DNA from: a bacterium | Lineage (GTDB): Bacteria > Actinomycetota > Acidimicrobiia > Acidimicrobiales > Bin134 | Assembly: GCA_026705465.1 (NCBI GenBank) | Contig: JAPPAP010000032.1 | Location: forward strand, 2,693-66,692 | Reading direction: 5' to 3' | DNA length: 64,000 nt | Shown: positions 55,902-58,372 of the stretch, piece after piece | How the letters are laid out: each line of letters starts with the position of its first letter | Numbering within the stretch: position 1 is the stretch's first letter | Translations under genes and position numbers: made by a program | The notes under the pieces: model-generated | Database searches by the model: none | What the model was told of the DNA's origin: nothing | The model's input: the letters and a program-made list of their open reading frames with translations, nothing else

Positions 55902-56759
55902 ATGGCGGTGGAACTGGAATGGCTGGTGGACCAACCCTCCCAAACCAACCCGGTCATGGTGGTGGCCCTGGAGGGACTGTTCGACGCTGCTGATGCCGCC
56001 ACAACTGCGGTGCGTCTGATGAAGGAAAGCGCCAACAGCGTCGAACCGCTGGCCCACATCGACCCCGAGGGGTTCTTCAATTTCCAAGATCGACGCCCCG
56101 AAGTCCGTCTGGATGACAGCAGCAGACGGGTCATCGATTGGCCGTCAACCCAGGTAGACGCAGTGGAGCGCTTCGGCGCCAAGCACCCCCTGGTCATCGT
56201 GGACGGGGTAGAGCCCCACTTGCGGTGGCGGACCTTTGCCAACTACCTGGTGGAAGTGGCCACTGAGTGCCAGGCCGGGTTGGTGGTCACCCTGGGGGCC
56301 ATGGTCGGTCTCGCCCCTCACACACGACCGTTGGGAGTGGTGGGCAGCTCCACCAGTGCCGATCTCGCCCGCATGTTCGGCTTGGGCCGCCCCACCTACG
56401 AGGGCCCGACTGGCCTGGTGGGCGCGCTCCATGACGCCTTGGACCAGGCCCGCATACCGGTCATCTCTCTACGGGTGTCTGTCCCCCACTATGTGCCCGG
56501 ACCGCCCAATCCCGAAGCCACCCGGTCGTTGCTCAAGCGATTCGAGCTGATCACCGGCATAATCACCGATCACGCCGAGCTCGACGAGGCCGCAGCCGCT
56601 TGGCGGGAGCGGGTGGACGCTGCGGTAGCGGGCGACGACGACCTCAAGGACTACGTCGCCCAGCTTGAACGTCAGATCGATGAGGCCGACGACCTCCTCC
56701 CCACCGGCGACGACCTAGCCACCCAGTTCGAAGCCTTCCTCCGCGACCCCTGGAAATAG
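55902..56759 (+). CDS. PAC2 (proteasome assembly chaperone-like) family protein
   Basis: The ATG at 55902 gives a 285-aa protein. PVMVVALEGLFDAADAA..GPTGLVGAL resembles actinobacterial PAC2 family proteins. This assignment is from memory. Confidence 0.6.
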   Translation: MAVELEWLVDQPSQTNPVMVVALEGLFDAADAATTAVRLMKESANSVEPLAHIDPEGFFNFQDRRPEVRLDDSSRRVIDWPSTQVDAVERFGAKHPLVIVDGVEPHLRWRTFANYLVEVATECQAGLVVTLGAMVGLAPHTRPLGVVGSSTSADLARMFGLGRPTYEGPTGLVGALHDALDQARIPVISLRVSVPHYVPGPPNPEATRSLLKRFELITGIITDHAELDEAAAAWRERVDAAVAGDDDLKDYVAQLERQIDEADDLLPTGDDLATQFEAFLRDPWK

Positions 56760-56763
56760 GGTC

Positions 56764-57297
56764 TTACACCGCGGTCAAGCGGGCGACGGCTTCGTCGATG
56801 ACGGTGGTGGCCAACTTTTGGAGGGACTCGTCGTCGAGGGTGGAGACAGGGTGGGGGACGGTGACCGCGGGGTAGGAGGCCATGCCCACGGTGGGGGCGA
56901 ATGACTCGACCACCGGCTGGAAGGGCTCAGTAACCAGCAGCATTGAGGGGATACCGCGGGATTCCATGTGAACGGCGTCGTGCAGACTGCACGCCGTGCA
57001 GGCGCCTCAATCGCCAAGGCCAGAGATGATGAGGTGGGATCGGGCGGCCAGCATCTCGGCGTCATCGGAGTCGATGGGCTTGCCCGCCGCCGATTTGGAG
57101 TGGACCACGATGTCGGCCACCGGAAGGCGCTCCCGCAATCCTTCGGCCAGGTAAGTAAGCAGTTCTTTGGCGTTGTTCTTGGCGTTGTCAATCACCCCGA
57201 TGACCACAGGCTCGGTCGGCATCTGGCGAGGCGCCATGGCCACCTGCTCGACCTGGGCTTCCTCATAGACCGGCGACAACACGGTTACAGACGACAC
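56764..57297 (-). CDS. Candidate selenoprotein (UGSC-type U-x-x-C protein). The in-frame TGA at 57007..57009 is read as Sec (codon 97 of 177).
   Basis: RBS GGAAGGAG lies 5 nt before the GTG at 57297. The frame is open across a single TGA: ..SHLIISGLGD-U-GACTACSLHDAVHMESRGIPSML.. A hairpin follows directly. The track splits this into ORFs 57007..57477 and 56764..56967, which are in the same frame. Confidence 0.7.
56974..57006 (-). promoter_or_regulatory. Candidate bacterial SECIS hairpin immediately 3' of the in-frame UGA
   Basis: The RNA reads UGA GGCGCCUGCACGGCGUGCAGUCUGCACGACGCC. The upper stem is CGUGC(A)/(U)GCACG and the lower helix is GGCG/CGCC. The loop G and U fall at nt 23 and 24 counted from the U of UGA. 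Confidence 0.55.
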
Positions 57298-57310
57298 CAG
57301 AACTCCTTCC

Positions 57311-58372
57311 TCACGCCAAGGGTAGCCCGTCGCCCGGCGCGGCCACCCTTCGAGTGACCGCCACCGAGTGAACCGTCGGCGCCCAGTTGGGGATGTAGGC
57401 CGACCATCCCGCCCCCGCGCTGCCCGCAGTGACCAGGAAGATGTCGTGGGGCCCTCGGACCGTGTTGAGCTTGCCATCGGCGTCGGGGGTCATGTCGTTT
57501 TGGGCGGTGAACTCCAGCAGAACCCCGCCCGCGGCCAAATGCTCGGGAGTCACCCTGCTGTGCTCGGCCAAGAACTCCCGCACCATCAGCTTGGTCCAGC
57601 CGGCCTCGGCCAGGATCTGGCGGTGCTCGTGGCCGATCACCAGCAGCACTTGGTGCTTCTTGGCCACTGGGTAAGTGGCCGGGCCGGTCATGGCGGCGAC
57701 GAAGGTCAACAGGATGCCCTCGGGGTCGCCGTTGAGGTGGTTGGCCACCTGATGCGGGCTCTCGGAGGGAAACATGGTCACCGTGGTGTCGTCCTTTCCG
57801 TAGCCCAGTTCCACCCGCAGCGGTGGCCACCCTTCGGGCGGGGGCTCTTCGGCCACCAGCATGGTGTACTTGCCGGGGTGGCCCAGTGATGATCCGTCGA
57901 GGGTGTCCGACCGGGCCCCCAACACGTTCATGGCCACCAGCCGCAGCGCCCGCCCCACCGTGGCGTTGGCCCGGTGGCCCGGCCCTAGGGCATTTCGCCC
58001 AGTGTTGAACCCCAATTCGGCCACCAAGGGCCCGCTCACCACCGCGCACAATGCGGCCCCGCCGGTGCTGGTCACAACGGTGTGGCATCCGAACTGGGGA
58101 TCGAACATGGCCGACAGTCCAGCCAGCACTACCGGGAAGTACTCGGGGCGGCACCCGGCCATCACCGCGTTGACGGCGGCCTTCTCTGCGGTCACTTCCC
58201 GCGACCGCTCCGGCACATTGCCCACGATGTCGGCTGCCCCCACTCCGGCATAGTCGAGCATGGCCTCAACTCGCTCCGGGGTGGGCGGAATGACCGGAAG
58301 CCCGTCGGTCCACCCCCGCTCGAAGAACTCCTCTTGGACATCCGCCTCGGCGAGCACCAACTCCTGAGCCAT
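57311..58372 (-). CDS. Conserved protein of unknown function, immediately upstream of the selenoprotein candidate
   Basis: 353-aa ORF with real-protein composition. The N-terminus reads FFERGWTDGLPVIPPTPERV. Its stop is 13 nt before the downstream GTG. I did not recognise a catalytic family. Confidence 0.6.
   Translation of the reverse strand: MAQELVLAEADVQEEFFERGWTDGLPVIPPTPERVEAMLDYAGVGAADIVGNVPERSREVTAEKAAVNAVMAGCRPEYFPVVLAGLSAMFDPQFGCHTVVTSTGGAALCAVVSGPLVAELGFNTGRNALGPGHRANATVGRALRLVAMNVLGARSDTLDGSSLGHPGKYTMLVAEEPPPEGWPPLRVELGYGKDDTTVTMFPSESPHQVANHLNGDPEGILLTFVAAMTGPATYPVAKKHQVLLVIGHEHRQILAEAGWTKLMVREFLAEHSRVTPEHLAAGGVLLEFTAQNDMTPDADGKLNTVRGPHDIFLVTAGSAGAGWSAYIPNWAPTVHSVAVTRRVAAPGDGLPLA

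Follow-up and report, generated by a model that had tools for sequence, protein, structure and literature searches.

Gene organization around the in-frame UGA

The window, i.e. the whole stretch of 64,000 nucleotides that was analysed, carries two co-oriented genes on its minus strand at the locus described here. The gene features are the following.

56764..57297, minus strand: predicted UGSC-family selenoprotein gene, 177 codons and a stop, GTG start, with a single in-frame UGA as codon 97
57007..57009, minus strand: predicted selenocysteine codon UGA, in the motif G-D-U-G-A-C
57311..58372, minus strand: partner gene of 353 amino acids, upstream and co-oriented, its stop lying 13 nt before the UGSC start

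In the numbering used below, the U of the UGA is nt 1 (window position 57009), and nt n corresponds to window position 57010-n. Read from the UGA, the minus-strand RNA is UGA GGC GCC UGC ACG GCG UGC AGU CUG CAC GAC GCC, exactly as it was given in an earlier sequence-only reading of this DNA.

Standard ORF calling splits the gene: one ORF (57007..57477) ends at the UGA and the next one (56764..56967) continues in the same frame. The protein read through the UGA matched the UGSC model PF24696 with an E value of 4.8e-46 and 157.6 bits against a cut-off of 25, the match covering model positions 2-171 out of 172. The score with NF041046, "UGSC family (seleno)protein", was borderline (125.6 bits, cut-off 125) and was reached only when the UGA was read through; each half of the split gene alone remained far under the NF041046 cut-off. 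The start codon is the GTG at 57297, where orthologues show either ATG or GTG, and a GGAGG ribosome-binding site as well as the stop codon of the upstream gene are conserved in front of it. Third codon positions dominate the variation on both sides of the UGA, which indicates a single coding frame.

TGA was invariant at this codon in all 34 orthologues, which share 84-95% amino-acid identity. The wider family set was collected from the phylum, from relatives and from public genomes, its sources including Actinomycetota, Myxococcota, Dehalococcoidia, Entotheonella and Binatia, and consisted of 190 rows of the Sec form, with 123 distinct sequences of 42 nt, and 54 rows of the Cys form, with 45 distinct ones. 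The codon was TGA in the 190 Sec-form rows, which represent several phyla, and TGC or TGT in the 54 Cys-form rows; the UGA is thereby aligned with Cys in the Cys-form homologues. TGA is also the commonest stop codon of the genome (730 of 1329 long frames), therefore the recoding is local and the genetic code is unchanged. Judged by these comparisons, the gene is a predicted selenoprotein gene of the UGSC family and a single gene across the UGA. The Asp codon preceding the UGA (57010..57012) was GAU in 34 out of 34 orthologues, GAC being dominant elsewhere in this GC-rich gene; the conserved GAU may reflect a context effect on UGA decoding.

The source assembly (3.1 Mb in 40 contigs, denoted C with a number) belongs to a sponge-associated member of Acidimicrobiia, and the public records closest to it bear the name Candidatus Poriferisocius. 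The selA and selB genes adjoin each other on contig C3, and the SelB of this genome has a C-terminal SelB-wing_3 domain, the SECIS-binding module. The selD gene is present at C19:53941-54885 and contains an in-frame TGA of its own at C19:53970. Two hairpins follow the UGA of selD, of which the second (nt 30-46), with the loop GGUCA located 32 nt from the UGA, fits the bSECIS model described in the last section.

No tRNA-Sec was detected in the whole assembly by ARAGORN, RF01852 or pattern scans, and there was no tRNA in the selD neighbourhood. A tRNA-Sec, scoring 60-68 bits, was found in eight of eight same-genus relatives. A BLAST comparison identified C3:1-51 as the 3' 51 nt of tRNA-Sec, with 100% identity to the intact gene in a relative from the same genus. 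The tRNA-Sec is cut by the contig end, which is why the finders list no selC here; the gene is therefore present and was only interrupted by the assembly. selA and selB are located 16-19 kb further along C3 from the partial gene. Two other ARAGORN predictions, an 88-nt tRNA-Cys(GCA) at C7:110817-110904 and a 90-nt tRNA-Gly(ACC) at C30:245966-246055, are poorly paired in their stems and appear to be false positives within coding regions.

Folding of the RNA downstream of the UGA

The structures considered in the RNA after the UGA are listed here.

56979..56993, minus strand: core hairpin of the putative SECIS, nt 17-31, with the 5' arm CGUGCA (56993..56988), the loop G23 U24 C25 (56987..56985) and the 3' arm UGCACG (56984..56979)
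56976..56996, minus strand: optional helix extension, C14-G34 and G15-C33 across a G16-A32 mismatch, predicted with 5' nucleotides masked
56974..57006, minus strand: lower helix suggested in the sequence-only reading, GGCG of nt 4-7 (57006..57003) with CGCC of nt 33-36 (56977..56974)

The six pairs C17-G31, G18-C30, U19-A29, G20-C28, C21-G27 and A22-U26 can all be formed in this sequence. The optional extension puts the base of the hairpin 10-11 nt from the UGA and was partly conserved among the 123 distinct Sec forms, with 15:33 paired in 91, 14:34 in 57 and 16:32 in 88 of them.

The minimum free energy (MFE) structure of the free RNA was a different one. In this alternative fold the UGCA of nt 10-13 pairs with the UGCA of nt 26-29 and the GGC of nt 15-17 with the GUC of nt 23-25, the loop is GUGCA, and the structure is closed by nt 4-8 with nt 31-36. 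Its energy was -15.4 to -15.9 kcal/mol and it made up about 90% of the ensemble of the free 42-nt RNA, while the hairpin with the G-U loop reached an ensemble probability of at most 8%. The expectation that the MFE structure would present an apical G-U loop at +23/24 was thus contradicted for the free RNA. The warning, given in the same sequence-only reading, that the threefold motif CUGCAC/GUGCAG/CUGCAC allows alternative pairings proved to be justified: the three copies are located at nt 9-14, 18-23 and 25-30, and an alternative pairing is the MFE of the free RNA.

A different result was obtained when the first 9 to 15 nt were masked. The best fold was then always 18-22/26-30 or 17-22/26-31 with the loop G23U24C25, at energies of -7.6 to -12.1 kcal/mol; the bare 6-bp hairpin had -7.6 kcal/mol, and -8.2 to -12.1 kcal/mol was determined with the extensions and a masked 5' end. 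The first mRNA nucleotides after an A-site UGA would sit inside the mRNA channel of the ribosome. On this general knowledge of the ribosome footprint, nt 1 to about 13 would be masked by the decoding ribosome and the competing fold would be removed. Since the competing fold uses nt 4-13, which would lie inside the ribosome, and shows no covariation (see below), the MFE of the free RNA is not decisive against a SECIS. As this case shows, the MFE fold of one sequence can suggest a wrong structure.

Other measures taken from the single sequence were of little help. The fold stability was equal to that of shuffled sequence (z = -0.03), which is uninformative in a GC-rich coding context. A 6-bp in-register helix together with G23U24 occurred after 32 of the 81,224 genomic TGA triplets (4e-4), most of them outside coding frames, and three of these 32 sites were UGSC genes. 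Four other TGA sites with the helix and the GU were rejected as chance matches, their translated frames being full of stops. An Rfam scan of positions 56500-57500 at E values up to 10 gave chance hits only and nothing SECIS-like; we know of no curated bacterial SECIS model in Rfam. There was no U-run after the hairpin. Taken alone, the single sequence is statistically unconvincing, and the comparative evidence is decisive.

Conservation and covariation of the hairpin in the UGSC family

Codons +5 to +9 (GCG UGC AGU CUG CAC, nt 16-30) showed near-zero synonymous variation in the 34 orthologues. The sole synonymous change in this stretch was C25 to U, which is located in the loop. The synonymous entropy of these codons was 0.038 compared with the gene mean of 0.577, the lowest of 71 windows of codons (permutation p = 0.00025). 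The flanking codons were free at nt 6, 9, 12, 15, 33 and 39; nt 6 was C, G, U or A among the orthologues, and G15 was replaced with C in half of them. Because nt 6 and nt 15, which are needed in the lower helix and in the alternative fold, vary, the frozen stretch matches the upper hairpin and not these two structures.

Covariation was determined with 49 diverse Sec forms aligned without gaps. The helix 17-22/26-31 was paired in 92.5% of the cells, and three of its six pairs had changes on both sides. At the pair 21:27, 32 of the sequences had C-G and the other 17 had G-C, so that it was unpaired in none. This flip proceeds via a synonymous site, UGC being combined with GUG, CUG or AUG, and UGG with GUC, AUC or CUC. 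The covariation of the helix exceeded that of 500 out of 500 shuffles and of all the slide controls. The compensatory changes that had been asked of the orthologues were therewith present, most clearly at 21:27, and the stem 17-21/27-31 with A22-U26 and the apical G23/U24, as proposed in the sequence-only reading, is both conserved and covarying in the Sec forms. The lower helix 4-7/33-36 from the same reading fared only in part: it can form in this RNA, but it was paired in 51% of the cells, with 6:34 paired in 34 and 7:33 in 21 of the 123 distinct Sec forms, and is not conserved.

The Sec and Cys forms of the family differed in both the loop and the helix. G23U24 was present in 110 of 123 distinct Sec forms and in 2 of 45 Cys forms (Fisher p = 7e-26, the counts not being independent due to clade bias in the Cys set). 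The mean energy of the in-register helix was -6.9 kcal/mol in the Sec forms versus +2.4 kcal/mol in the Cys forms. The Cys-form set is dominated by one clade (C-G-S-C-T-A-Y-S-V), and the Sec/Cys statistics overstate independence. Ser at +7 was encoded by AGU in 103 of 103 Sec forms, and at least five of the six Ser codons were used for Ser +2 of the same genes. In the Cys forms with Ser at +7, the codon was AGC or UCN in all but one of 43. Where the Sec forms had Gly or Cys at +7, the codons were GGU or UGU, and the GU was retained. The Cys-form homologues do not conserve the hairpin, which favours a SECIS over a coding constraint.

The residues at neighbouring positions followed the same division. 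The +6 codon of the Sec forms was always an NGS codon (Cys, Trp, Gly, Arg), and Tyr (UAY) was found in the Cys forms; +9 was nearly fixed as His (CAC) in the Sec forms and free in the Cys forms. The putative SECIS lies on codons of the active-site region, and it is conceivable, although rather unlikely, that the RNA helix, beyond protein function alone, dictates the residues of the Sec forms. One Cys form, CGSCTSWSVHD from a metagenome-assembled genome of Acidimicrobiia (L237, DATBSK010000002.1), has the full stem of the Sec type (UCG UGG ... GUC CAC GAC) with the loop AGC instead of AGU; it looks like a recent Sec/Cys switch in which only the loop U was altered.

Three other explanations of the hairpin have to be weighed against these data. 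The stem is made of the UGC, CUG and CAC codons of conserved residues, its UGCA palindromes come from Cys codons, and the z value of the single sequence is that of a random RNA; all this would be expected if the hairpin were a by-product of the amino-acid motif C-x-x-C-S-L-H with its self-complementary Cys and His codons and had no RNA role. However, such a motif does not account for synonymous sites that are frozen within nt 16-30 and free outside, for a 21:27 pair that covaries via the synonymous third position of Val or Ile (GUG with UGC, GUC or AUC with UGG), for the contrast between the AGU of Ser +7 in the Sec forms and the AGC or UCN of the Cys forms, or for a GU that is kept across Ser, Gly and Cys codons. 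The by-product explanation is largely refuted already and must be regarded as highly improbable. It is likewise very unlikely that the functional SECIS is the alternative fold (10-13/26-29 and 15-17/23-25, loop G18 U19 G20 C21 A22, closed by 4-8/31-36), even though it is the MFE and the prevailing structure of the free 42-nt RNA and its loop also starts with G-U. It showed no covariation, being paired in 65% of the cells and equalled by 491 of 500 shuffles; 15:25 was paired in 25 and 16:24 in 33 of the 123 distinct Sec forms, half of the orthologues have C for the G15 it needs, and 12:27 fails exactly where 21:27 flips. It also depends on nt 4-13, which from general footprint knowledge would be inside the ribosome at decoding, and its loop begins 14 nt after the UGA, under the range of 16-37 nt given for bacterial SECIS elements (PMC13188914). 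Neither this fold nor the lower helix belongs in a description of the element.

The UGA might also be a true stop, the gene being split, a pseudogene or a pair of small ORFs, with the hairpin as a terminator-like or pause structure. The outcome of ORF calling and the prevalence of TGA among the genomic stops speak for it. Against it stand the invariance of the TGA in the 34 orthologues and the 190 Sec-form rows and its alignment with Cys elsewhere, the codon-position-specific purifying selection on the downstream part in the same frame, a family HMM that spans the UGA, the complete Sec machinery in the genome and a hairpin that is not followed by a U-run. A true stop is therefore extremely improbable. 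The hairpin is very probably a bacterial SECIS of a UGSC-family selenoprotein gene, as the sequence-only reading had proposed from its distance to the UGA, the same as in fdhF; the comparative data that speak for it are the covariation, the synonymous constraint confined to nt 16-30 and the loss of both helix and GU from the Cys forms.

According to the mechanism proposed for the locus, a ribosome with the in-frame UGA (57009..57007) in place would leave the mRNA just outside free to fold to the 6-bp stem 17-22/26-31 with a loop exposing G23/U24. The C-terminal winged-helix domain of SelB would bind this loop, and SelB-GTP-Sec-tRNA(Sec) would be tethered at the A site, so that the UGA would be read as selenocysteine and not as a stop. 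The predicted product has 177 aa and contains the redox motif U-G-A-C. The mechanism of selenocysteine decoding as known is not changed by this case, which is an ordinary example of it. What is gained is a documented bacterial SECIS in which the helix covaries through synonymous sites and, within the family, the G-U loop is Sec-specific. The two "small ORFs" are one predicted selenoprotein gene, and the same applies to five paralogues and selD; pipelines that stop at UGA truncate all of these.

Paralogues, partner gene and comparison with known systems

Six UGSC paralogues were found in the genome, 27-34% identical to the window copy and each with one in-frame TGA. Six paralogues of the partner gene were found as well, each adjoining one of the six UGSC paralogues. 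The loci are as follows.

UGSC paralogues: C27; C40:5512-5943; C30:532569-532943; C21:159020-159466; C22:41774-42220; C30:47127-47432
Partner paralogues elsewhere in the genome: C21:159758-160531; C40:5955-6980; C22:42262-43218; C30:533169-534158; C30:47532-48485

The same six UGSC paralogues were present in three of the same-genus relatives searched, and the fourth (G304) gave no match. Two of the six paralogue types (TGA at C40:5709 and C30:47198) had ACC in place of the AGU of nt 22-24 and fitted the helix poorly; the SECIS element is therefore not uniform across the UGSC family. These deviant types, H-U-GSCT[S/T]GTVRD and N-U-GSCTSWTVHD, do not begin their loop with G, and the deviant gene of one relative has no G anywhere in the loop. 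Their synonymous sites were invariant, including a rare CGU codon. By eye, a shifted hairpin with the pairs C21-G31, A22-U30 and C23-G29 and the loop CGUGC is possible in the first deviant type and, if real, would explain the invariant unusual CGU codon. The ACC paralogues may thus represent a shifted or distinct SECIS class, or they may be decoded less efficiently.

Modelled with AlphaFold (pLDDT 91), the UGSC protein has a flavodoxin-like alpha/beta fold in which the Sec occupies the N-terminal end of a helix that follows a beta strand. A PDB fold search gave generic flavodoxin-like matches only (TM 0.53 or less), and PDB sequence searches with the UGSC protein and the partner gave nothing significant. 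The partner gene was adjacent at 22 of 23 UGSC loci of relatives. Its protein belongs to none of the families in Pfam or NCBIfam. The homologues number more than 7200, and all the named ones among those listed are "hypothetical protein". Its invariant residues include Cys74 and a T-S-T-G-G motif. The model of the partner (pLDDT 88) has no close solved relative; in the fold search it resembled class I fumarate hydratase and Toblerone-fold enzymes only weakly (TM 0.28 or less). UGSC and its partner look like a conserved two-gene selenoenzyme module. A domain named "Unknown_1" has been reported to be fused to UGSC (PMC2398784), and at a guess the partner is this domain.

UGSC-containing proteins have long been known as an abundant selenoprotein family of prokaryotes, described from the Sargasso Sea and GOS selenoproteomes, with a presumed redox function (PMC2398784), and the UGSC family is listed under NF041046 in PMC13188914. 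The gene in the window resembles this family in its U-G-[S/A]-C motif, in its similar length and in the Sec forms far outnumbering the Cys forms. In this copy Ala replaces Ser (UGAC), and the gene is one of six paralogues in a sponge-associated member of Acidimicrobiia. The fold modelled here is flavodoxin-like alpha/beta, with no obvious thioredoxin fold.

The bSECIS model of Zhang and Gladyshev (bSECISearch, restated in PMC13188914) describes a loop of 3-9 nt on a stem of 4-16 bp. Loop position 1 or 2, or both, is G, and the nucleotide after it is usually G or U; UGA and loop are separated by 16-37 nt, and the energy is -7.5 kcal/mol or lower. The loop determined here has 3 nt, or 5 nt (AGUCU) if A22-U26 is taken as the N1-N2 closing pair, and the stem has 6 bp. 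G is the first nucleotide of the loop and U the next, and 19 nt (nt 4-22) separate the UGA from the loop. The energy is within the model, the bare core being marginal at -7.6 kcal/mol. The in-frame UGA is aligned with Cys in homologues, and selA, selB and selD are present, the tRNA-Sec being cut by the contig end. There is no essential difference from the model, except that the element competes with a more stable fold in the free RNA.

The SECIS of E. coli fdhF is a 17-nt minimal hairpin of nt 15-31 at a distance of 11 nt from the UGA; its U17 is bulged and its loop contains G23/U24 (PMC8659212). These loop residues were given correctly in the sequence-only reading, and the bulged U17 is a SelB contact needed by the SelB of E. 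coli (PMC8659212). The element described here has the apical G23/U24 at the identical distance from the UGA and nearly identical stem letters (UGCA...UGCA), and with the 14-15/33-34 extension the base of the hairpin is also about 11 nt from the UGA. Unlike fdhF, it has no bulged U17, as C17 pairs with G31 in 116 of the 123 distinct Sec forms; its loop is GUC (3 nt) compared with the GGUC (4 nt) of fdhF, the lower helix is not conserved, and the actinobacterial host has a SelB of its own. The element would work like the fdhF SECIS, although it is not of the strict fdhF type.
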